Virus record (IMG/VR): IMGVR_UViG_650377933_000003
Length of the DNA stretch: 45,850 nt
Reading direction: 5' to 3' (one strand)
DNA from: a virus
Taxonomy: Duplodnaviria > Heunggongvirae > Uroviricota > Caudoviricetes
Shown here one piece after another: positions 26,691 to 39,228 of the stretch. Within the stretch, counting starts at the first letter, position 1; the number at the start of each line of letters is the position of its first letter. Below the pieces are notes generated by a model. That model worked only from the letters and a program-made list of their open reading frames with translations. It made no database searches and was not told where the DNA came from. A program made the translations under genes and the position numbers.

Positions 26691-26990
26691 TTTGTCGCTC
26701 CATGCGTTTGCTCGTCATCTAGCGGTTAAAATATTACTTCAAATCTTTCTGCATAAAAGAGGAAAAGTATGAAAGTTTGAGTACATCGACCTTACATACA
26801 TCTGTCGGTTGCATATCCCTCCTGGATGCCAGCAAGGCTCAACTTTGTTACGCAATCAACACTATTCATTAAAAACAGGCTTAATATTTGACATAAATCA
26901 TCAACAAAACACAAAGAGGTCAGACCAGATTGAAACAATAAACACGATAATGCAAACTACGCGCCATCGTATCACATGGAAGGTTTACCA

Positions 26991-27401
26991 ATGGCTCAGG
27001 CTGCCATTTTTAAAGAAATATTCGATCAAGTGCGTAAAGATTTAAACTGTGAATTATTTTATTCTGAGCTAAAACGTCACAATGTCTCACTTTATATTTA
27101 CTATTTAGCCACAGATAATATTCACATTGTGTTAGAAAACGACAACATAGTGTTAGTAAAAGGACTCAAAAAGGTTGTAAATGTTAAACTCTCCAGAAAC
27201 AAACATCTTATAGAGACCTCCTATAATAAGTTGAAATCAAAAGAAATCACATTTCAACAATACAGGGAAAATCTTGCTAAAGCAGGAGTTTTCCGATGGG
27301 TTACAAATATCCAGGAACACCAAAGATATTACTATGCCTTTGATAACTCATTACTATTTACTGAAAGCATCCAGAAAACTACACAGATCTTACCACGCTA
27401 A
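26991..27401 (+). CDS. ydfO: DUF1398-type protein, YdfO-like (136 aa)
   Basis: ATG at 26991 with GGAAGG upstream; [31 protein letters not shown]... matches recalled YdfO. Confidence 0.7.
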
Positions 27402-27552
27402 ACCATAACGTCCGGCTTCTCTCACTCCTGAGCCGGACTGCATTGGTTTAATAAAAACCATCAACAATTGTGATTTAGATATTCGGAACCATTCAAATAT
27501 AACAAAACCCCGTAAAAACGAGGTTTATGGATAAATTTTATTATTGAATACA

Positions 27553-27726
27553 TCAGATTAAATTAATCTTGACATCATAGCTTTCAAGACCCGTCATTTT
27601 TTCCCGTGCGGTAAACTGAATACTGGTAACTTCTTTCCCGGTCTTTTTCTTAAGTTCAATAATTTTTTTTGTTATATATTCAGAAATATCTGCTTCTGCT
27701 TTTGTTTTTAAGTCTTCAATATTCAT
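27553..27726 (-). CDS. gnsB: GnsB-like small protein (57 aa), not in the ORF track
   Basis: Manual minus-strand translation gives MNIEDLKTKAEADISEYITKKIIELKKKTGKEVTSIQFTAREKMTGLESYDVKINLI; AAGAGGA upstream. Confidence 0.75.
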   Translation of the reverse strand: MNIEDLKTKAEADISEYITKKIIELKKKTGKEVTSIQFTAREKMTGLESYDVKINLI

Positions 27727-27897
27727 CATTTCCTCTTTTAGTCTGTTATGACTTTCCAGTTACACAGTAAGTCGATTATATGGTGCAAACGTGTAAAAGA
27801 TAAGATGAAACATCGCAATAATCAACATACGATAGTCTAAATTTTACACAAACAGACAAAGAGAATTTTCCTGAATTATCAATGCAATAGCATCAAA

Positions 27898-28128
27898 TCA
27901 ACTCAAGAGCCTTATTGCTGCTTCCAGAATTTCTTCTGAAGTAACATGTCGATCCGCGGCTACATAAATGACTTTATGATCTCCGGTCAGAGATGGAAAC
28001 CCTGCGGCCATTACAGTAAGGTGTGTTTTTTCGCCATTTGGATATTCACGCATGATGGTGTTAACTCCAGTCATCGCTGGCACTACCACTGCTGGTTCAG
28101 AGTTAAAAAAAACTATGATTTTTTTCAT
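27898..28128 (-). CDS. Hypothetical protein (about 76 aa)
   Basis: ORF 27898..28170; likely start MKKIIVFFNSEPAVVV...; no homolog recognised. Confidence 0.4.
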   Translation of the reverse strand: MKKIIVFFNSEPAVVVPAMTGVNTIMREYPNGEKTHLTVMAAGFPSLTGDHKVIYVAADRHVTSEEILEAAIRLLS

Positions 28129-28399
28129 GATGTTACCGTAGTATGTGAGTATCCATCGAATAGACACCAAGCAAAAAAGCTCCCGAAGGAGCCTTCATTT
28201 TCACTTTTTTAAATCCAACGACAGACGGCTGGCATTTAAGTATTGTGAAATATTATCAAATGTAATCATCATTGATTTACAAAAGATACATTTTGCCCCG
28301 AAAGGATTCATGTCAGAAACATCAAAAGATGATGTTCTATACTGGGAACCATGACAACACGGGCATCTAAAGTGAATATGGTTTGTAATATTGTCTACC

Positions 28400-28612
28400 T
28401 CAAAGCGCCACTACATGAACAGCGGCAGGACCTTTAGGTCCGTTCTCAATACCAAATTCAACTTCCTGATTCTCAGTTAATGTTTTGAAATCGTTGCTCT
28501 GAATTGCTGAGAAATGGACAAACACATCTTTGCTGCCATCTTTCGGCGTGATGAAACCAAAACCTTTTTCAGGGTTAAACCATTTCACTAAACCAGTCAT
28601 TTTGTTAGACAT
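28400..28612 (-). CDS. cspI: Cold-shock protein (CspA family), CspI-like
   Basis: 70 aa; [23 protein letters not shown]... with RNP1/RNP2 motifs (KGFGFI, VFVHF). Confidence 0.85.
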
Positions 28613-28975
28613 AATTATTACCTTTTGAAGAAATTAGCCCTTGGGCAGAATGGTCCGAAAAAAAAATATCAGAGAGAAAAACCAACAAGGAAATCTCAAG
28701 AGGTACAAATAATAAAATTATAACAATGACTGCTTCAGATAAATTTGTAACAAACCAGAACACCATTAACGCATGATTAACCACCCATAGCAAGGATTAC
28801 TTTTGTAAAGAAAAACACAGCAATGAAAGAATAGCTTTATTTATTAATAAAACGTGTCATTCTGATTAAGACCTTTTATCTTACCCTTAAGATTTCAGGA
28901 ATTTTGGCTCATGGAAGCGTCCTTTTTATTTAAATTTTACATTCCGCGATGTAAATGTTCCGATTTAATATTACC

Positions 28976-29999
<1,024 letters not shown>

Positions 30000-30003
<4 letters not shown>

Positions 30004-30311
30004 AGATATTTATGATGAGGACGCTCGTGCTTATTGGCAGGATTTTCAATCTTAAAGGAGTACTGATGCTGCAGATAAGACTCAACTTTTTCTGACAATT
30101 TTTCTGCTACTTCCAGGAAGACTTGCCGGACGCTCCTTCTGGCTGCTGCCTCATAAAACTCCAGCGCAGCTCCTTCAACACGGTCCATGGCGACATCCAG
30201 GTCAAAAATTTCACCGTCAAAGCGTTCTTTGTCCTGTAAGGCTACAGTTACCGTAACTTTATTCTCAAAATTACGGACTCCTTTCACAACCAGTTCATAG
30301 TCTTGAGTCAT
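30000..30311 (-). CDS. ydfR: YdfR-like protein (103 aa) between holin and endolysin
   Basis: Size and position match the recalled Qin ydfR; sequence identity not verifiable here. Confidence 0.55.
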
Positions 30312-30315
30312 TGGA

Positions 30316-30531
30316 TTACTCTCCTCTCGCAGCCTTACGCCTGTCTTCTTTAATCTTGAAATAAAGATTTGTCAGATACGTCAGCAGGCCAAAAACCAGG
30401 CTACCCAGCACACCGATTGCAGCCCACTGTGACGGAGTTACTTTATCGAGTAACTGCAATGCCCAGAAACCAGCATTACCCGCCGATGTGCCATAGGCAA
30501 CACCTGTTGTTAACTTATCCATTGATTTCAT
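30316..30531 (-). CDS. Pinholin, phage 21 S-like, with dual-start motif MKSM
   Basis: [71 protein letters not shown] closely matches recalled S21/EssD-type holin. Confidence 0.85.
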
Positions 30532-30750
30532 ATCCTCACCCCGATGTACACGGATGGTGCAATATGTTTGAAAAGATCGGAGTCTACGGGGTAGTTTTGA
30601 CAGCACACGCTGTTCTCAACGGCGCTAAAGAAACATACACATTAAAAATGTGAGTAATTATTTTGAAAGAAAGTCATATATAAAATAATAATACGAGAAA
30701 TGTTTTCATATTTAGTGTACTGTATACGGCCATTTATACAGGAAAAGCCT

Positions 30751-30921
30751 ATGTCAGAACGTAAAGACTCAAAATCACGCCGTAATTATCTCGTTAAATG
30801 TTCCTGCCCAAACTGCACCCAAGAGTCAGAACACAGTTTTTCAAGAGTACAAAAAGGTGCCCTTTTGATCTGCCCTCATTGCAACAAAGTATTCCAGACA
30901 AATCTTAAAGCTGTAGCCTGA
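30751..30921 (+). CDS. Small zinc-ribbon protein (56 aa, two CxxC pairs)
   Basis: ATG at 30751 with AGGAAAAG upstream; CSCPNC ... CPHCNK motifs; followed by a GC hairpin. Confidence 0.5.
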   Translation: MSERKDSKSRRNYLVKCSCPNCTQESEHSFSRVQKGALLICPHCNKVFQTNLKAVA

Positions 30922-30980
30922 TTGATTTTATTAGTAACAAGTATTTTTTATATTTTAATAATATATTTAAAGCAGATAAT

Positions 30981-31006
30981 AAAAAACCCGCCTGAGCGGG
31001 TTTGAG
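30981..31006. terminator. Bidirectional rho-independent terminator-like hairpin
   Basis: AAAAAACCCGCCTGAGCGGGTTTGAG: GC stem flanked by an A-run and a T-run, between convergent genes. Confidence 0.5.
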
Positions 31007-31284
31007 ATTGTGGTGCTTTTTGTGGGAGTCATCCACTTACGCACTTTGTTTTGCCATGCCAGCAGTTAGCTTCTGCTGTAAAACTATTCATGCAGCAAAC
31101 CTGCACTTCACCACAATGGTTAGCATACTTTCCCTGATTAAGATTTTGCCAAATATGCTGGCCATTGTTTCATGTATTGGACCTCCTTAATTTTTATTAA
31201 AGAAATCCAATATTCACTACTCTGTCCGTATCTCTACTCAGGCATCAGCCTTCTTCGTTATCGTATACAGACGAGCGATGAATT

Positions 31285-31500
31285 TTAATCAGTAATGATG
31301 ACATTTGCTGCTGCAGGACCTTTAGCACCACTCTCTATAGAGAAGGTAACCTTTTGACCTTCAAATAAGGTTCGATAATTATCATTCTGAATCGCAGAAA
31401 AATGCACAAACACATCTTTACTACCATCAACAGGAGAAATAAAGCCGAAACCTTTATCAGCGTTAAACCATTTTACTAAACCAGTCATTTTATTTGACAT
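31285..31500 (-). CDS. cspB: Cold-shock protein (CspA family), CspB-like
   Basis: 71 aa; [23 protein letters not shown]... Confidence 0.85.
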
Positions 31501-31800
31501 TCTACATTCCTTAACTTGAGCCTTTCGGCATAAATGGTTTGCATAACAGAAACGACTTCGTACTTAATTGGAGAGACTCAAAGAAGGAATAAGTGAATAA
31601 CACCTGAAATGAGAACTGCTTTAGTAAACTACTTCGTATATCGTCTGTTCTTCAAACCGACGCAATCATTAACGCATAGTTGAACATATGAAGCAATGTT
31701 TATTTTAGACATCCAGCCATCTTCAACCCCATCAAAAAACTATAGCTTTCTTCAGGAACGTGTGTATAGTGCGCCAAGTTATCAGTATTAAGGAATTTTT

Positions 31801-32013
31801 TTGTCCCGTAAAATGACAGGAATTGTCAAAACCTTTGACGGCAAAAGCGGCAAGGGTCTTATCACCCCATCCGATGGTCGTATCGATGTCCAGCTTCATG
31901 TTTCAGCGCTCAATCTCCGCGATGCAGAAGAAATTACCACCGGATTACGCGTGGAATTTTGCCGGATAAATGGTCTGCGTGGCCCTTCAGCTGCCAATGT
32001 TTACCTTTCATGA
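31801..32013 (+). CDS. cspF: Cold-shock-domain protein, CspF/CspH-like
   Basis: 70 aa; [23 protein letters not shown]... Confidence 0.8.
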
Positions 32014-32292
32014 GCTATATTAAAGCTTTAATTTCAGGCCCCATCGGATCACACATGGAGAGTTTTTATGAATAACCCCGTCTGTCTTGATGACTGGTTG
32101 ATTGGCTTTAAAAGCTTATGCTGTACTTTGGCCGTAATAGCTCTGCTAATAATATAATAAGCAGACTCATTGTGTTTAGGGACATTGTACTGGAAGAAAA
32201 CATTTTAAACATCAGGCAAATAACCAAGTCACCAGCTAAATAATAAGTTAACAGACATGAGTCCCGGGATGAGATTCAACATTACCATTGCC

Positions 32293-32325
32293 CCATTTAA
32301 AGCACAAAACCCGCTCATCAGCGGG
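32293..32325. terminator. GC hairpin with T-run, candidate tR'-like terminator downstream of Q (bidirectional)
   Basis: AAAACCCGCTCATCAGCGGGTTTTCTACTTTTT, about 110 bp downstream of the Q stop on the minus strand. Confidence 0.45.
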
Positions 32326-32434
32326 TTTTCTACTTTTTCTTAACGTCGGGTATACAAAGCCCATCGTTGAAAAAATTTTATCCATATTTTTTGAAAAATG
32401 CAAACATCATGTCGCCATCTTCAGCAAAAATCAT

Positions 32435-33187
32435 TTATCTCGTCACCTTCCTCAATTGCGCTTCCGCGTATGCTTCTTCCTGCCAGCACTTTGTTACCAG
32501 TTTATCAATGACGTCCGCATACCCTTTATACCACTGATAATCGGTCAGGTCTGGTACCAGCTTCTGGACATGACGTCGTGCCAGCGTGGTCGGTAAACGA
32601 CTAAACCGGTTTCCATTACAACGCCCACAAATCTTATATACCGGTACGCCATGAAACCGGGTTCTTTTTTCATCCAGAACAATCCCTTTACCCTTACACC
32701 CTCTGCACGCTGTGCTGACTTCGCCCTTACCATGGCAATGCTGACATAGTTCCTTCACCCATTCTTCCTTGATTACAGATTCCCCGCATCTGTAGTGTTT
32801 CACCACTTCGCGCAATACATTATAAAATCCCGTACCTGAACAATGCTCACAGCGAGCCTTACTTGCCGCAGACCTGGAGTAATCAGCAAAGGCAAAATTC
32901 ACGAGGTAAGGAATAATCTGTAACCGGATTTCTTCACTCAATTTGTTCAATGTCGGGTTATCCAGTGCCATCGCGTAATTTAGCAGGCCTTCAATCGCAA
33001 ACTGAGAGTCCTGAACACCAACTTTTGCCAGAAATAAGGCCAACCCAAGTGGTGCTTTCGACTGCACCATCCCCTGCGCTGCCATTACATCCGTAATTGT
33101 TAAACAACCGGTGCCTGTCGCTGGAGCGTCATCGCTCAATTTTGGAGATTTTGGGGAGTAATATTTTGGTAAGGCTTCAAGGTTCAT
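32435..33187 (-). CDS. Late-gene antiterminator Q (phage 82/Qin QuuQ-like), zinc-binding
   Basis: 250 aa with multiple CxxC clusters (CEHCSGTG, CQHCHGKG, CRGCKGKG, CGRCNG) in the expected position upstream of the lysis region. Confidence 0.8.
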   Translation of the reverse strand: MNLEALPKYYSPKSPKLSDDAPATGTGCLTITDVMAAQGMVQSKAPLGLALFLAKVGVQDSQFAIEGLLNYAMALDNPTLNKLSEEIRLQIIPYLVNFAFADYSRSAASKARCEHCSGTGFYNVLREVVKHYRCGESVIKEEWVKELCQHCHGKGEVSTACRGCKGKGIVLDEKRTRFHGVPVYKICGRCNGNRFSRLPTTLARRHVQKLVPDLTDYQWYKGYADVIDKLVTKCWQEEAYAEAQLRKVTR

Positions 33188-33200
33188 GCTCGTTCTCCAC

Positions 33201-34289
33201 TTACGCCAGTACGCCAGTTGCCAGCGCGCGATCGATAAAACGAAATATCAGCTCCAGTTGGGAGCCATACTTCTCTTCAAATGCCACTGTATCCGTATGC
33301 AGCTCGTTGTGATGCTTTCTGCACAAAGGCAACACAAAGAGATCATGTGCTTTTGTTCCCATTCCGCCCTGCCCGTGACCAATCAGATGATGCGGATCGT
33401 CGGCTGGCATACCGCAGCAAGCACACGGCTGTGTCTTAACCCAACGTGTGTATTTCTCCTTAACCCAGCGGCGACGTTTAGGCAGCTTCATGAAAGATTC
33501 CGGAGACTCTGGATCAACGGTGATGATTACCACCGTCTTTTCCTGTGGTGGTTTTTGTTGCTGGTGGGCGTAAGGCAACGGTGCAAGATTTTTTGTGCGT
33601 TGTTTCAATATGCTGGTGGCGGTCTGCTCTCCCGGTACGATGTCGCTTTCGCGGTACACCGAGCAGATTTTTTCCGCTGGTAATCCCAGCGAACGACGCG
33701 ATACAGCCTCAGGTAGTGCATCCACCACCTGATTGCAGACCGCCCACCAGGATAATTCAGCCAAAGATAATTCCCGCTCCTGCGTACCGCTTATTGCGTG
33801 ACGGATGACGTCAATCACCCATGCTGTCAGATTTTGTTGAGCAAGCAGCTCCAGTGATTCCGATGTCTGGTCACGCAGTTGGTTGTCGCAGTGCCAGCAC
33901 AACACCATTGCGCCGGTACCATAACGGTGAATGACTGTTTCAGTGTGATGGTAATCGCCATTAGGCCACTGGCAGGATGTAACATGACGTAATAGCCAGT
34001 CGGACAATGCGCCAACGCCGCCAGCAGCACGAATCACCCGTTCGTTACTAAAAAACGGCAGCAATGTTTTGTCTTCCGCCAGCGGCTGGCGAACGGCAGG
34101 AACGACTCCGGATGGCAGATTACGCATGCTTTTTGGTTCCGGTTCCACCAGCACTCGAGGATTATGAAATATCTGTATGGATTCACGGCCCGGCTTAAGG
34201 ACCACCAGCCCAAGCTCAGGCACCAGAACAGGTCTAAGTAATACCCGCACGTTACCTCCAGATCCGTTGCTGGAAAGTGCGGGACGCAC
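33201..34289 (-). CDS. ydfU: DUF968-type protein (YdfU-like) with C-terminal HNH-like Cys/His motif
   Basis: 362-aa ORF; C-terminus CACCGMPADDPHHLIGH...CRKHHNELH; precise start uncertain. Confidence 0.65.
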   Translation of the reverse strand: MRPALSSNGSGGNVRVLLRPVLVPELGLVVLKPGRESIQIFHNPRVLVEPEPKSMRNLPSGVVPAVRQPLAEDKTLLPFFSNERVIRAAGGVGALSDWLLRHVTSCQWPNGDYHHTETVIHRYGTGAMVLCWHCDNQLRDQTSESLELLAQQNLTAWVIDVIRHAISGTQERELSLAELSWWAVCNQVVDALPEAVSRRSLGLPAEKICSVYRESDIVPGEQTATSILKQRTKNLAPLPYAHQQQKPPQEKTVVIITVDPESPESFMKLPKRRRWVKEKYTRWVKTQPCACCGMPADDPHHLIGHGQGGMGTKAHDLFVLPLCRKHHNELHTDTVAFEEKYGSQLELIFRFIDRALATGVLA

Positions 34290-34530
34290 GTGGTGGGCGT
34301 TCGGAATAAGGCAGCCTGACAGAGATTATCCAGTACCGATAGTCGAGACTGAGAGCTTTCTTAACCTCGAACCCGCGCCTGCGGTAAGAATGAATCAGCC
34401 ATTCGGCCTGTTCTGCAGTGCATGGAGGGTGCTGGAACCATTCAGACTTGAATGCGTGAGAATACCGCCCGTGCGTGCAGGCAAGAACGGGCGAATTATC
34501 AGAATTGTAATATTTTGCGTTGCGTGCCAT
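34252..34530 (-). CDS. Hypothetical protein (92 aa)
   Basis: ORF overlapping the annotated 5' end of the DUF968 gene; may be real or an N-terminal extension artefact. Confidence 0.35.
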   Translation of the reverse strand: MARNAKYYNSDNSPVLACTHGRYSHAFKSEWFQHPPCTAEQAEWLIHSYRRRGFEVKKALSLDYRYWIISVRLPYSERPPRASRTFQQRIWR

Positions 34531-34596
34531 CGGTTTTCTCCGGTGGCACGGTGTTACTCAGCGGGAGTTCAGCCCCGCGCAAGATTGTAGATGAGT

Positions 34597-34848
34597 TTAT
34601 TCTCCTGAAAAAGCAGAAAAGCCAGCTTTTATTCCGATCTCTTTCAATGCCTGTAATGAAGTGACAAACTCACCTTCGCGCAAGATAAATCCGTCCGTGA
34701 CCCGAGCATCCACAAAATTAATTAACGCAGCCCCATTCTTTCGCAAACACATAATGCGGTAATGACTAACAAGATTTCCATTTTCAACGCACACAGCATA
34801 GAGGCCATCTTCACAAAAAATTTTACGCAGTTCTTCGATGTTCATCAT
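34597..34848 (-). CDS. Hypothetical protein (83 aa), possibly Rem-like by position and size
   Basis: Sits between the DUF968 gene and hok, where the recalled K-12 Qin gene rem (83 aa) lies; sequence identity not verifiable. Confidence 0.4.
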   Translation of the reverse strand: MMNIEELRKIFCEDGLYAVCVENGNLVSHYRIMCLRKNGAALINFVDARVTDGFILREGEFVTSLQALKEIGIKAGFSAFSGE

Positions 34849-34960
34849 CAGAATCCTTCCGGATAATTAGCTCTCCCCTTTAAGGGACCATCCCTCTTAT
34901 CCCTGCGCGCTACTTAAGTATTTTTGATTCTATTCCGGCACCGTCCAGAACTTCAAACGC

Positions 34961-34990
34961 GTTGAAAATAAAAACAAAAACCCGCCGAAG
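34961..34990 (-). terminator. Rho-independent terminator at the 3' end of the hok transcript
   Basis: Minus strand reads AACCCGCTTCGGCGGGTTTTTGTTTT, about 75 bp downstream of the hok stop. Confidence 0.55.
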
Positions 34991-35064
34991 CGGGTTAAGT
35001 GCGGGTGCGTTGAGGATGCCTGACACATCAGAGGTGGCGAGGGATTTCTCCCTCGCCGGGTCTC

Positions 35065-35220
35065 TTACTCCTCAGGTTCGTAAGCTGTGAAGACAGCGAC
35101 CTCCGTCTGGCCGGTTCGGATTCGTACCTCGCAGAGGTCTTTCCTCGTTACCAGTGCCGTCACTATGACGGTTAAACAGATGACGATCAGGGCGATTAAC
35201 ATCGCCTTTTGCTGCTTCAT
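35065..35220 (-). CDS. hokD: Hok-family membrane toxin (HokD/RelF-like, 51 aa), type I toxin-antitoxin
   Basis: MKQQKAMLIALIVICLTVIVTALVTRKDLCEVRIRTGQTEVAVFTAYEPEE matches recalled HokD; conserved hok mRNA-like flanks. Sok antisense RNA and mok were not mapped. Confidence 0.85.
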   Translation of the reverse strand: MKQQKAMLIALIVICLTVIVTALVTRKDLCEVRIRTGQTEVAVFTAYEPEE

Positions 35221-35492
35221 AGCCTGCTTCTCCTTGCCTTTCGGCACGTAAGAGGCTAACCTACATGTGTCTAGCATGAAATTGGCCTCAGATTAATGTT
35301 AAGCGTCTTGCAGGACGCGTAATGTTAACTGGGGCTTTTCTCTATCTGCCTTTGGTGTTCATGCCCGAGGCAGATAGCCTCAAGCACCCGCAGCCATTCT
35401 ACTTAACTACCTTTACCTCGCCAATATGAAATCAGTCAGAAAGACGATCCATAAGAACAATAGCAAGATTTCTTAATGGAGATGGATGTAAG

Positions 35493-36980
35493 CTAAATAT
35501 TTTGGCTCGGTCTGCTTTCTATTAAATGCAACCTGTATTTTAAAGCATGATGTGTCCTAAACTCATTTTGTAGATTAATTTTTAAGTTAGGCAAACTACT
35601 TACGTATTCCCATCTACCTTGTTTTTTTTGTCCGATAAGTGAGTTATCAAACAGGAAGTTGATATATTGACGTATCACCCCATCAGAAATACCTGCAAAT
35701 TCATTACGGCACTTCTCGGAGAAATCATTAAAATCGAATGTTTCTACTTGGATAGTTTGAAGAACAGTTAGTAAGTTCTCAATTTCAGGGAATTGGTTGG
35801 ACCATTCATCAATCACCTCATTGTACACACTTATAGATGCTTCACGGTCAGCTTCATAAAGCTCATTGGAAGTGTAAAGACCTGAGACATTATTTTTATG
35901 ACATGCCCTAATTTTGTTGAAGTAGACAATAATATCCCTAGGCCTAAAGAAAGAACGGCGACATATATATTTAAATGGAGGAGTCCCCTGCCTAACGAAT
36001 GAAACCTCAAATACTTTCCCAGATCTGTCCTTTTCGTCATCTAATATGAGATCATTAGGTTTGTATTTCTTTATCCTCTCATAATACATATCGTTTAGAT
36101 TATTTTCATTCCATGAGATTATGATAGCACTATCTTGCAATAATTTGTTTTTATCATTGAATTTCAAAGAATGATAAATATCCGTTCGTAGGAAGGGAAT
36201 GACTTTTAATTTATCATTGAGGCGTTCATCAGATGCTATGTTTCTACAGACATTTAGCAGATTTATTAAAACCTTACTATATTCTTCAATTTGCCCCTCT
36301 AGCCAGTTTTCGTCTAATTGGTCAAGGGCGATAATTATTTTTTCATTACCAATGTTATCTTTAAAAATTTTTTCAAAATACGTAAGCAATGTGAAAGCAT
36401 TAGCTCTTAGCTTTTGCTTTAGCTGAGCATTCTCAGCAACTTCCTCTAACGAAATTTCACCTGCGTCCAATGATACTTCATTAAGACCAGCACTGGGCCC
36501 TTTTATGGTTTTTAATCTGGTTATTTTTGAAAACAAAACCTCCCTAAGAGTTGGGTCGGGACTACCAAAGATAGTTTTGATATAATTATGTGCCCACGTT
36601 AGATCTTTGTTTAAAGTCTCTCCAGCATCATTTTTTATTTCAATAAGTTTAGATAATGCCTTAATATAAAAAAGATACATCCAACTTTTTTGATAAGCGG
36701 AAAGTTCTCCAGCCATTGCATCCTTGTAAAGTTGATGGGCTGGCCATGGATAGTCACTAAAATTTAGACATACTGAGTAAAACCCGTTGAGATTGGCTGG
36801 TTTTCCTCTTCTAAGGTGTTCATAAATGGCTGTTTTACCAGTACCTTTTCTTCCAAGAACCAACCAAGCCCTACTTTCAATAATATCCTTTATCGCCGGT
36901 AGCTTAAAAAAATAGGTCTGTAAGTCCCGATCTGTTTCTGCTGAAACTTGAAATTCTGGTAGCCAGTCTCTAATGTCCAC
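35493..36980 (-). CDS. P-loop NTPase of unassigned family (495 aa), NACHT/STAND-like Walker motifs; candidate defense cargo
   Basis: Walker A LVLGRKGTGKTAIY (aa about 41-54); Walker B-like KIIIALDQLDENW (aa about 214-226); GTG start with AAGAGGA 5 nt upstream; gene and flanks visibly AT-rich versus neighbouring phage genes. Confidence 0.8.
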   Translation of the reverse strand: MDIRDWLPEFQVSAETDRDLQTYFFKLPAIKDIIESRAWLVLGRKGTGKTAIYEHLRRGKPANLNGFYSVCLNFSDYPWPAHQLYKDAMAGELSAYQKSWMYLFYIKALSKLIEIKNDAGETLNKDLTWAHNYIKTIFGSPDPTLREVLFSKITRLKTIKGPSAGLNEVSLDAGEISLEEVAENAQLKQKLRANAFTLLTYFEKIFKDNIGNEKIIIALDQLDENWLEGQIEEYSKVLINLLNVCRNIASDERLNDKLKVIPFLRTDIYHSLKFNDKNKLLQDSAIIISWNENNLNDMYYERIKKYKPNDLILDDEKDRSGKVFEVSFVRQGTPPFKYICRRSFFRPRDIIVYFNKIRACHKNNVSGLYTSNELYEADREASISVYNEVIDEWSNQFPEIENLLTVLQTIQVETFDFNDFSEKCRNEFAGISDGVIRQYINFLFDNSLIGQKKQGRWEYVSSLPNLKINLQNEFRTHHALKYRLHLIESRPSQNI

Positions 36981-37297
36981 ATTTTCCTCTTTACATTACA
37001 TTACCTTTATGTTTTTCCAAAATAAATCAAAGTCATATGGCGTATCAAGTTTTTTTGATTATTTATGAGCTCATACTCAAAAAAATACTAAATCTAATTT
37101 ATCTTACGTTAACTAAAGATTTCATATGTTAGTATGCTCAAGCAATGCTACTGCTGGAGTCTGATGATATCCGTTATACACTAATTGCCACGCACACAAG
37201 CGACATCAGTTCATGGCACAAAGCAGACAACCACGCTACCTCTACCCTATGCCATGAAAATGTCAATTTACATCTTAACTAATGCACTTTAATCTCG

Positions 37298-37720
37298 TCA
37301 CTTAAATAGATACCGAACATTTCCCTGATAAAACGACAATATGCGCTGCATAACTTCGCTCTTCCGGCACTCGCGACAGATTATGTTTAGACGACTGTCG
37401 TAGCGACGTATTTCTCCATCAGGTAGTGACCAGATAAGGTCCGGATCAACCACAGCGGGTTTCTTCACCTTCGCCCTAGAGAGTTTTTTGCGGGCATTTT
37501 GCCAGTCCTTTCGTGCCTGTTCAGACGGGAATAACCCGTAGCCGGAGTTGTATACATAACCACTGGCAACCAGCTCTCTGGCAAGAATGCTCATCAGATA
37601 TCTTGTCGCACCTGTTTTAGCTTCCAACTGTCGTAATGTCTCGCGACCGCTCTGGCGCACAAGTTCGACCACCTGCTCTTTAATTTTTTCCCGCTCTTCC
37701 TGTGTAAAAACTTTTGCCAC
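37298..37720 (-). CDS. Hypothetical protein (140 aa) with winged-helix-like segment, downstream of the replication initiator
   Basis: GTG start with AAGGAGG 5 nt upstream; segment RETLRQLEAKTGATRYLMSILARELVASGYV resembles a wHTH; basic C-terminal half. Confidence 0.5.
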   Translation of the reverse strand: MAKVFTQEEREKIKEQVVELVRQSGRETLRQLEAKTGATRYLMSILARELVASGYVYNSGYGLFPSEQARKDWQNARKKLSRAKVKKPAVVDPDLIWSLPDGEIRRYDSRLNIICRECRKSEVMQRILSFYQGNVRYLFK

Positions 37721-37760: not shown

Positions 37761-38726
37761 TTATCCCCTGAAACCAGGCGGAATTTCTGTATCCGGTTCA
37801 GAAATATGATTCACACAACGCTGTACAGGTGAACGTCCCAAGCGGATGACCAGTTCGTCCCATTTTTCGCGGAGTTTTGACGGGCTCATGATGTTTTTTA
37901 CCCAGAATGGATCTCGCTGTACCCGACCAAACATTTCGCAAATTTGTCTGTGGCTTCTGCCATCCAGCATCCGCATTGTGCGCACGTCATTGGCCCAGGC
38001 TGTCCAGTTAGGCTCTTTTGGTCGCATGATCTCTCCATCGTCGCTGGCAGCCTGTTCGTAAAGATTCACGATCCGCCCCCAAATCCACTGCGCACACGCC
38101 AAATCCTCCCTGCTACCCCACTGGCGTTTTTTCGCACTAAACACAACCGCGTCGGGGTTCCGGGTTAAAAAATCCTGTTCAGCGGTCTGCGGGTCCGGTT
38201 GCGAAGCTTCCGGACGAAAAGTGTTTTTATTCTCTGTAGTAATCTCTGTTGTATTCTCTGTAAGATCATCAGGCCATTTTGACCCGATGACATTGGGTCG
38301 TTTTGAACCAATGGAGCGTTTCATTTTGACCTCTTCCATCGTGTCATTTTGACCTGATGGAGCGGCGCATTTTGAACCGATGGATTCGTTCAATTTGCCA
38401 CCATCTAAAAGCTCGCTCCCATAGTTGATCGTGTAGAAATTGGTCATATCGCGCTTTGATTTATTGAGCTTTTCACAACGCAAAAGCCCCAGCGTTTTCA
38501 GACTTGCAAACGCGCGCTTTAACGTTGACTCTGACCAGAATGGGAACTGTTCCAGCCATTGTTCCGTTGTGTTGTAAATCCAGCGAACACCATCACATTC
38601 CATGCCGGAATTGGTATCTCTCAACCAGTAATGCAACTGCTGCAACACAATGGCTTCATTTAAGCCAATCTTCATCGCAAGCTGTGTGTTTATAACCAGT
38701 GGGCGTTCAGCAAAAAGAAGGCTCAT
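37761..38726 (-). CDS. Replication initiator (lambda O-like replisome-organiser N-terminal domain) containing in-gene iterons
   Basis: N-terminal ...PLVINTQLAMKIGLNEAIVLQQLHYWL... is typical of phage replisome organisers; internal repeated peptide IGSK corresponds to DNA iterons. Start at the ATG at 38726 (ORF track extends to a TTG at 38780). Confidence 0.7.
   Translation of the reverse strand: MSLLFAERPLVINTQLAMKIGLNEAIVLQQLHYWLRDTNSGMECDGVRWIYNTTEQWLEQFPFWSESTLKRAFASLKTLGLLRCEKLNKSKRDMTNFYTINYGSELLDGGKLNESIGSKCAAPSGQNDTMEEVKMKRSIGSKRPNVIGSKWPDDLTENTTEITTENKNTFRPEASQPDPQTAEQDFLTRNPDAVVFSAKKRQWGSREDLACAQWIWGRIVNLYEQAASDDGEIMRPKEPNWTAWANDVRTMRMLDGRSHRQICEMFGRVQRDPFWVKNIMSPSKLREKWDELVIRLGRSPVQRCVNHISEPDTEIPPGFRG
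38275..38402. repeat. Iteron array (about six copies of CATTTTGA[C/A]C at roughly 23-24 bp spacing), putative phage origin
   Basis: Direct repeats at about 38275, 38299, 38322, 38345, 38369 and 38391, inside the initiator gene. Confidence 0.65.
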
Positions 38727-39228
38727 AATTCCATCCAGCTTTTTGTTGGTATTGCAGTCGATACGCAAGTTTGAAAGCAATTGCTTTTTCTATAAGTTCG
38801 TCAGTTTCACGATCCACTACGGCAGGATCAGCAAAAAGCAGTCCGGACTCCACCACATCGCCATATTCTTTGTTTAACCCGGCGATCATGTACGTGATGC
38901 TTTTTCCGTCACTAATTTCACGATACAACCTGAAATCATTAATCCGGATAGCCTCCATAATTGCAGGCACTAGCGCCGTGAACTTTTCACGCTTATCCCT
39001 AGTGTCGATAGCCTTCCAGCGTTCGAATATCTTCACTCGATTAACGCCAAGCGCTCGCTGATCAACCGCGCCACCTTCATCTGTGACACGCTGAACATCG
39101 ATGTTCGGGCGCTCTTTCAAAGCCCAGAATGCTTCAGTGATTAATATCGTCGCCTGCTCCTGTGTCATTCCTGGTCGACATATCCAGGCATCCAGAGCCT
39201 CACGAGCCTGTTCAGGAGTGATTTTCAT
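38707..39228 (-). CDS. Hypothetical early-region protein (173 aa) between dicC and the replication initiator
   Basis: ORF with ATG start and small overlaps with both neighbours; CII/YdaT-like position; no homolog recognised. Confidence 0.5.
   Translation of the reverse strand: MKITPEQAREALDAWICRPGMTQEQATILITEAFWALKERPNIDVQRVTDEGGAVDQRALGVNRVKIFERWKAIDTRDKREKFTALVPAIMEAIRINDFRLYREISDGKSITYMIAGLNKEYGDVVESGLLFADPAVVDRETDELIEKAIAFKLAYRLQYQQKAGWNYEPSFC

Follow-up and report, generated by a model that had tools for sequence, protein, structure and literature searches.

The DNA analysed here, a stretch of 45,850 nucleotides recorded in IMG/VR as IMGVR_UViG_650377933_000003 (hereafter the window, meaning the whole stretch), has a hypervariable accessory slot directly upstream of a hok/sok toxin–antitoxin locus. 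The slot is real, and its only gene in the window encodes a 495-amino-acid (aa) P-loop ATPase, a member of the Sll1717 family; at the corresponding position, known or candidate anti-phage systems are found in sister prophages. An original prediction for this DNA had described the region as a variable cargo position at which hok and an NTPase gene took the place of the relBE/ydfV/flxA/intK content of the Qin prophage in Escherichia coli K-12. Its observation was confirmed and its interpretation was supported in part. The explanation that we prefer as a whole, in which the hypervariable slot lies upstream of hok/sok, the ATPase is its cargo, and the relBE transposon of K-12 entered at a separate point, is probably correct.

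The hypervariable slot upstream of hok/sok

The edges of the slot were mapped by alignment of the window with two prophages that retain both flanks (L003 and L004). The last base in common on the left was 35468 and the first on the right was 37214, and these edges were identical for three unrelated cargoes, namely the ATPase, a RelA/SpoT-domain gene, and a DUF4209 gene. The one-gene island between them (35469-37213; 1,745 bp) had a guanine-plus-cytosine (GC) content of 0.345, and GC was about 0.31-0.37 over 35400-37300 versus about 0.5 in the flanks. On the left, a conserved spacer (35390-35468, minus strand), in which the promoter scan placed a promoter-like site for hok at 35396-35424, was the last sequence in common with other prophages before the cargo, and about 1,000 genomes matched up to 35468. 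The left breakpoint varied by lineage (35408/9, 35436, 35454/61, and 35468), and L003 and L004 had a further 244 bp in common inside the slot. A conserved hairpin was located exactly at the right edge (37205-37262; inverted repeat I6; DNA fold of −12.1 kcal/mol, z = −4.1); it was common to the window, L003, and L004 despite their different cargo, and no run of T followed it. Beyond this hairpin, the DUF977/Ren-like gene (37298-37720, minus strand; Pfam DUF977, 9e-29; phrog_142, "Ren-like exclusion protein") forms the conserved right boundary and adjoined the slot in most of the compared loci. The original prediction had proposed that the insertion boundaries be mapped and inspected for short direct repeats; the boundaries could be mapped, and a repeat search detected no direct or inverted repeats above chance at the edges of the ATPase island.

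The flank (34850-35560) matched 4,728 of 5,426 complete E. coli genomes, with a median of two and a maximum of ten places in each; for the flanks in general, the median number of places in a genome was 2 and the maximum 10-12. The DNA of the slot itself (35430-37290) matched 49 of the 5,426 genomes and was nearly full in 40. As the island is present in approximately 40 genomes versus more than 4,700 for the flanks, we conclude with high confidence that the ATPase is a rare accessory cargo and not a core phage function; the original prediction had argued the same, and the occurrence of the same replication module with other cargo (see below) agrees with it.

Fourteen loci, which were picked from ranked hit lists and not at random and serve as illustrations, not frequencies, had 14 different contents upstream of hok/sok. 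Six of these included recognised or candidate defence genes. With the same edges as in the window, GPEC1165 carried the RelA/SpoT-domain gene (PADLOC candidate PDC-S33, 5e-119) and ATCC 25922 carried the DUF4209 gene (PADLOC candidate PDC-S39, 2e-102). Strain EC77 had Kiwa KwaA/KwaB together with QueH, and further prophages had Septu PtuA/PtuB (1e-165 and 1e-83) with an integrase remnant, a split PDC-S06 ATPase, or a methyltransferase with a SMEK-domain protein (a partial SMEK match). The other occupants were QueH alone (ST131), an alpha/beta hydrolase, a group of small genes that includes an HNH endonuclease, the adhesin Paa (paa) with a fimbrial pseudogene (O157:H7), and a hypothetical protein of 326 aa accompanied by a small integrase. 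A query that combined the two flanks gained one new locus and gave no cargo-size distribution, its best list consisting mostly of one arrangement (the relBE transposon, Kiwa, and QueH). Collinear gene content conserved across Qin-type prophages was thus not what the 14 loci displayed, and the variable, insertion-prone accessory position of the original prediction was borne out by their 14 contents and by the three cargoes with identical edges.

The cargo of the window was also seen in interrupted forms. The ATPase gene was split by an IS3-family insertion sequence element in strains STEC313 and STEC367 (H13/H14). In strain EA2 (H55/H61), it was seemingly truncated, the island match ending after 761 bp, and a "Zn-dependent oxidoreductase" was annotated by PGAP under the match. 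The interruption and the truncation are signs of cargo decay.

The Sll1717-family ATPase as a candidate defence gene

The ATPase gene (35493-36980, minus strand) has a GTG start after AGAGGA. Its product matched NCBIfam NF047389, "P-loop ATPase, Sll1717 family", with 250.4 bits (cutoff 75), residues 13-484 covering profile positions 5-454 of 454, and it also belongs to phrog_13260, which has no assigned function. No Pfam family was found for it; for the Pfam family ORC-CDC6-like (PF24389), the window protein gave no match and its homologues scored 21-24 bits, below the cutoff of 27. Invariant in 36 homologues were Walker A (G43-T50), Walker B (D220-E224), R265, R341/R342, and R346/R348. The predicted fold comprises an ORC/Cdc6- or STAND-like NTPase core, a helical lid, and a C-terminal winged helix, and it matched ORC/Cdc6-like NTPases with the winged helix included, while a search of the profile against all PDB chains returned no significant sequence match. 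STAND immune receptors such as Avs and bNACHT were considered, and neither C-terminal sensor repeats nor an N-terminal effector was found; the 495 aa leave no room for them, the model being made up of core, lid, and winged helix. Another identity weighed for the ATPase was "Reve", a single-gene system of the KAP type from P4; it was not confirmed, as no KAP domain was detected in the ATPase.

The profile search for the ATPase retrieved at least 885 clusters (50% identity) at E <= 1e-10. Homologues of about 494 aa with 61-72% identity were found in Vibrio, Nitrosomonas, Arcobacteraceae, Sulfuricurvum, Bdellovibrionaceae, Flavobacteriia, and Patescibacteria, and identity was 49-71% across at least seven phyla. 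Such identity over distant phyla points to frequent, recent, and wide horizontal transfer under strong constraint. The family is widespread, and no published function for it was found in the literature searched, where the family name "Sll1717" appeared in no paper. Identity was unusually high, at 61-71%, in Patescibacteria (L043 and L051), Bacteroidota (L039-L044), and Campylobacterota (L036/L037), candidate-phyla-radiation bacteria included.

The homologues occur in diverse contexts. A Serratia homologue (81% identical) was located in a P2-like prophage between gpA and ogr/portal, and a Klebsiella homologue (89% identical) was located in another P2-like prophage between gpU and the tail fibre genes; from the gene order and the P2 map, we take these positions to be the tin/old and Z/fun hotspots of P2. 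A Vibrio cholerae homologue (71% identical) was located near rtxA and adjoined a filamentous prophage (Zot, Rep_trans), and an Enterobacter homologue had a non-phage chromosomal context. In V. cholerae, a 97-aa open reading frame (ORF) precedes the ATPase (L007, 7573-7866; L009, 270-563); a conserved small partner gene was nevertheless rejected, as this ORF was absent in E. coli and in Serratia L010 and was different in L011. Neighbours in 16 loci from other phyla included Drt2, PDC-S05, PDC-S57, methyltransferases, and integrases. Distant family members (P0176, P0189, P0233, P0234, and P0269) had additional domains fused to them, namely two effector-associated EAD7 domains, a glycosyltransferase of the GT4-conflict type, or a cold-shock domain at the N terminus.

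On balance, we lean towards reading the ATPase as an anti-phage or anti-mobile-element gene. It might be a switch driven by ATP: the winged helix would bind nucleic acid, the protein would assemble there, and the assembled protein would block replication of the invader or trigger abortive infection. This mode of action is favoured because the protein has no enzymatic domain and because its structural relatives act in this way; by analogy with them it is possible, although we would not expect it. Between these two in strength is the broader proposal, put forward tentatively, that the Sll1717 ATPase could be a new single-gene anti-phage system that moves among lambdoid, P2-like, and filamentous prophages and among phyla, lacks an enzymatic effector, and works by ATP-dependent ORC/Cdc6-like assembly on invader nucleic acid, with the junction of the Ren-like gene and hok/sok as an undescribed lambdoid defence hotspot. 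If this is true, the junction could be searched for new systems in the way that the P2 and P4 hotspots have been.

Several points weigh against a defensive role. The compared loci were a chosen set, as noted above, and the non-defence occupants QueH, hydrolase, and Paa make position alone no proof of defence. The ATPase had no full-length match in PADLOC v2, the only match being a partial one to PDC-M28C (4e-5, residues 212-304); no enzymatic effector domain was recognisable in it, and its mechanism is conjecture. A search of 50,697 isolated phage genomes returned one weak match, in Lactococcus. As for expression in the lysogen, the AT-rich region upstream of the gene (36981-37213, minus strand), which is part of the island, may contain a promoter of its own (e.g., 37019-37048), while the promoter scan gave 9 sites versus 7.1 expected in shuffled sequence, that is, no excess. 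No paper linking the Sll1717 family to defence was found in the literature searched. Finally, a 2026 preprint reported that hok is enriched in prophages but, in general, not in the neighbourhood of known defence systems, which leaves the original prediction's general premise, that toxin–antitoxin loci mark recombination-prone positions, without genome-wide backing.

The ATPase could instead be cargo with a non-defence function, such as regulation or lysogenic conversion. The non-defence occupants of the slot and the lack of an effector domain or a PADLOC family fit such a role, whereas the homologues in both presumed P2 defence hotspots, the fusion of distant members to conflict-system domains, and the patchy distribution across phyla at high identity argue against it. 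We consider a non-defence role a real possibility, albeit an unlikely one.

Proposed cargo exchange, the relBE transposon, and neighbouring genes

Lambdoid prophages that reside in the same host would exchange the cargo through recombination in their conserved flanks, and their copies of the flanks would supply the substrates. A site-specific or transpositional entry of the cargo as a cassette-like element was considered as an alternative. The identical edges of three cargoes, the hairpin exactly at the right edge, the integrase remnants within some cargoes, and the use of a neighbouring site by a true transposon favour such entry. It is nonetheless improbable, as the edges of the ATPase island have no direct or inverted repeats, the left breakpoints are of at least four kinds, and the additional 244 bp common to L003 and L004 are expected of nested mosaic joints. 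The varied breakpoints, the repeat-free edges, and the common 244 bp fit mosaic joints that are kept and exchanged by recombination in the flanks.

The neighbouring transposon carries the relBE genes. The gene order of K-12 Qin is rem-hokD-relE-relB-ydfV-flxA-ydfW-ydfX-dicC-dicA, so that the original prediction was correct in placing hokD-relE-relB in K-12, and it was also right that relBE are absent from the window. The window was collinear with K-12 at 98.7% over 26913-35234, ending 14 bp upstream of the hokD ATG, with no further homology before 38949, in ydfX/dicC. Missing from K-12 are therefore the leader of hok, the ATPase, DUF977, and the O-like gene. In L031, an IMG/VR contig, the ATPase, the intact hok leader, and the relBE block were all present. 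The insertion in L031 (7762-11062; 3,301 bp) lay between the leader and hokD, contained relE, relB, ydfV, flxA, ydfW, and a 446-aa transposase annotated as ISNCY, and was bounded by a 15-bp direct duplication, TAGCCTGCTTCTCCT. This 15-mer is 35220-35234 of the window, where K-12 homology breaks off, and constitutes the unoccupied target site of the transposon. The ends of the element form imperfect inverted repeats some 25 bp long, in which about 18 of 25 bases match. EC77 and at least the 60 best hits of the query with both flanks had the whole element, the hok leader, Kiwa and QueH in the slot, and then DUF977; further coordinates of the element are about 4336-7640 in L018.

The relE-relB-ydfV-flxA-ydfW block is, from its boundaries and gene content, carried as passenger genes by a 3.3-kb ISNCY-transposase element inserted at the start codon of hokD. 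K-12 (L001, 9290-11359) matched only the first 2,070 bp of this element and then jumped to ydfX. The K-12 Qin arrangement therefore arose by transposition and subsequent deletion, and the slot was lost through the later deletion, which runs from inside the transposon to ydfX. Accordingly, the textbook-style picture is corrected: relBE of K-12 are on a transposon that split hokD from its leader, and the Qin prophage of K-12 is what a deletion left behind and not the reference arrangement.

The original prediction had put the ATPase in the same slot that relBE, ydfV, flxA, and intK occupy in K-12. In gene order, both indeed lie between hokD and the replication or immunity genes, and the relBE block of EC77 is between hokD and DUF977. 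Replacement within one slot is quite improbable, as the relBE block was inserted at 35220/35234 with the 15-bp duplication and is found in L031 alongside an intact leader plus the ATPase and in EC77 alongside Kiwa plus QueH.

The hok/sok locus of the window is intact. The gene hokD (35065-35220, minus strand), annotated as hokD in near-identical genomes, encodes a 51-aa type I toxin that matched Pfam HOK_GEF (PF01848; 1.2e-23, 82.9 bits versus a cutoff of 22), and a 70-codon extended ORF in frame with it spans 35065-35277. The 3' untranslated region of the hok mRNA (34975-35064, minus strand) includes the fold-back partner of the 5' end and an intrinsic terminator; the terminator hairpin (34979-34996), directly 3' of hokD, was the sole terminator-like site in a scan of 34850-37400, and none was predicted after the ATPase gene. 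The leader with the mok/sok regulatory region (35215-35389, minus strand) was a full-length match to Rfam RF01794 (118.3 bits, E 4e-27, gathering score 59, model positions 1-157). In the minimum-energy fold of the 421-nt hok transcript, the 5' end CGGGUGCUUGAGG (the first 13 nt) paired with CCUCAACGCACCCG just before the terminator (z = −9), an arrangement known from regulated hok mRNAs. Thus, the intact hok gene with its terminator was as originally predicted, and so was its distance from the ATPase (273 bp from the ATPase stop to the hokD ATG, compared with about 270 bp), while the extent assigned to hok (34961-35220) was too short, as the leader reaches 35389. At 34975-35056 (minus strand), over the hok 3' untranslated region and terminator, a sub-threshold match to the Salmonella small RNA isrK was recorded (25.6 bits versus a gathering score of 50); it probably reflects a shared structure of the hok 3' end.

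The window is, from its gene content, a complete lambda-like prophage of approximately 46 kb at the Qin locus of E. coli (ydfJ to rspB). Genes ydfJ and rspB flank near-identical DNA in complete E. coli genomes. ORFs of the sizes of tail, portal, and terminase genes are present and an integrase is at the end; the window is therefore a full-length lambdoid prophage and not a remnant like K-12 Qin. In transcription order on the minus strand, the genes are an O-like initiator, DUF977/Ren-like, the 495-aa ORF, hokD, rem, a 92-aa ORF, ydfU (DUF968), and the Q antiterminator. The region of the ATPase and hok is the junction of the replication module (O-like and Ren-like DUF977) and the late-regulation block (hok/sok, rem, ydfU, and Q), which corresponds to the ren/nin junction of lambda. 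The O-like gene (37761-38780, minus strand; phrog_391, 3e-93) was 95-96% identical in L003 and L004, whose cargo differs. A core role of the ATPase in replication, as a Cdc6- or DnaC-like helicase loader that works with the O-like initiator, could be suggested by its position directly after the O-like and DUF977 genes on the same strand, by its ORC/Cdc6-like fold, by the lack of an evident P- or DnaC-like gene in the replication module, and by the location of the Serratia homologue just after gpA. We consider such a role very unlikely because the same O-like/DUF977 module (95-96%) occurs with unrelated cargo instead (RelA/SpoT, DUF4209, or Kiwa); against it are also the presence of the ATPase in about 40 of 5,426 genomes, the Klebsiella homologue among tail genes, the Enterobacter homologue outside a phage, and the foreign GC of the island.

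Least probable of all is a single functional unit of the ATPase and hok/sok, for example, with the ATPase as a sensor that releases the Hok membrane toxin: the two share a strand and are separated by 273 bp in which no terminator is predicted, and hok/sok of plasmid R1 has been reported to exclude T4 (as cited in the 2026 preprint), but hok/sok stays constant while the upstream cargo varies in all compared loci, and in 29 loci of other taxa, the surroundings of the ATPase homologues contained no hok-like sequence.

On the other side of hok/sok, the conserved left neighbour is rem (34597-34848, minus strand), an 83-aa ORF annotated as "protein Rem" in near-identical DNA and assigned to phrog_340. 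In strain 14EC001, the Rosmer pair RmrT/RmrA was found instead of rem (L017, 2691-4425, approximately 34597-34900 of the window; PADLOC 3.6e-24 and 7e-107), which suggests a second variable position downstream of hok. Farther away, strain MRE162 has at its Qin locus a prophage that is otherwise 99% identical and lacks about 21.7 kb of the structural genes of the window (3430-25117); complete and decayed prophages alike thus carry the ATPase cassette. Upstream of and across cspB, at 31269-31661 (minus strand), the cspA thermoregulator RNA was matched over its full length (159 bits).

Comparison with known systems

Taken together, the position is a real, conceptually familiar, and fairly ordinary prophage hotspot with an interesting and credible new candidate defence gene. 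Variable prophage positions are a productive source of new anti-phage systems, and this slot belongs to a prophage family found in most E. coli genomes and already holds Kiwa, Septu, and several candidate systems. No description of a lambdoid hotspot at hok was found in the literature searched.

The ATPase was compared with the ORC/Cdc6- and STAND-type NTPases SSO1545 (2fna), PABY2304 (2qen), Cdc6, TnsC/MuB, Avs, and BrxC. It differs from these in a predicted helical insertion of approximately 130 aa between strand 2 and Walker B.

Insertion sequences of the ISNCY family with long target duplications are known as the IS1202 group. The relBE element appears to resemble them in its ISNCY-annotated transposase, its imperfect terminal inverted repeats, and its 15-bp duplication; unlike them, it carries relBE, ydfV, flxA, and ydfW as passengers.

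The hok locus of the window resembles hok/sok of R1 and hokD (relF) of K-12 in its Hok/Gef toxin, and its mok/sok leader and 5'-3' fold-back of the mRNA are those of this group. The K-12 hokD is without the leader, which was separated by the transposon and removed by the deletion. In contrast to K-12 hokD, the window hok is the intact ancestral form. The truncation of an ancestral 70-codon hokD reading frame by the integration of relBE was noted earlier (PMC6379469), and the transposon structure described above refines that observation.

The slot is similar to the hotspots of P2 (PMC9122126; PMC13586616) in being a fixed spot between conserved phage genes that takes many alternative, mostly anti-phage cargoes. 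It differs from them in belonging to a lambdoid prophage, in lying between a Ren-like gene and hok/sok, and in that non-defence cargo (Paa and QueH) is common too. The morons and the dispensable nin region of lambdoid phages are accessory genes of foreign GC among the genes of the early-right operon downstream of ren, with sharp mosaic joints (lambda map; mosaic model of Hendrix and Juhala). Similarly, the slot of the window holds an accessory gene of foreign GC downstream of a Ren-like gene, with sharp mosaic joints. Classic morons come with a promoter and a terminator of their own, whereas the ATPase has no predicted terminator and its promoter-like sites occur at background frequency.

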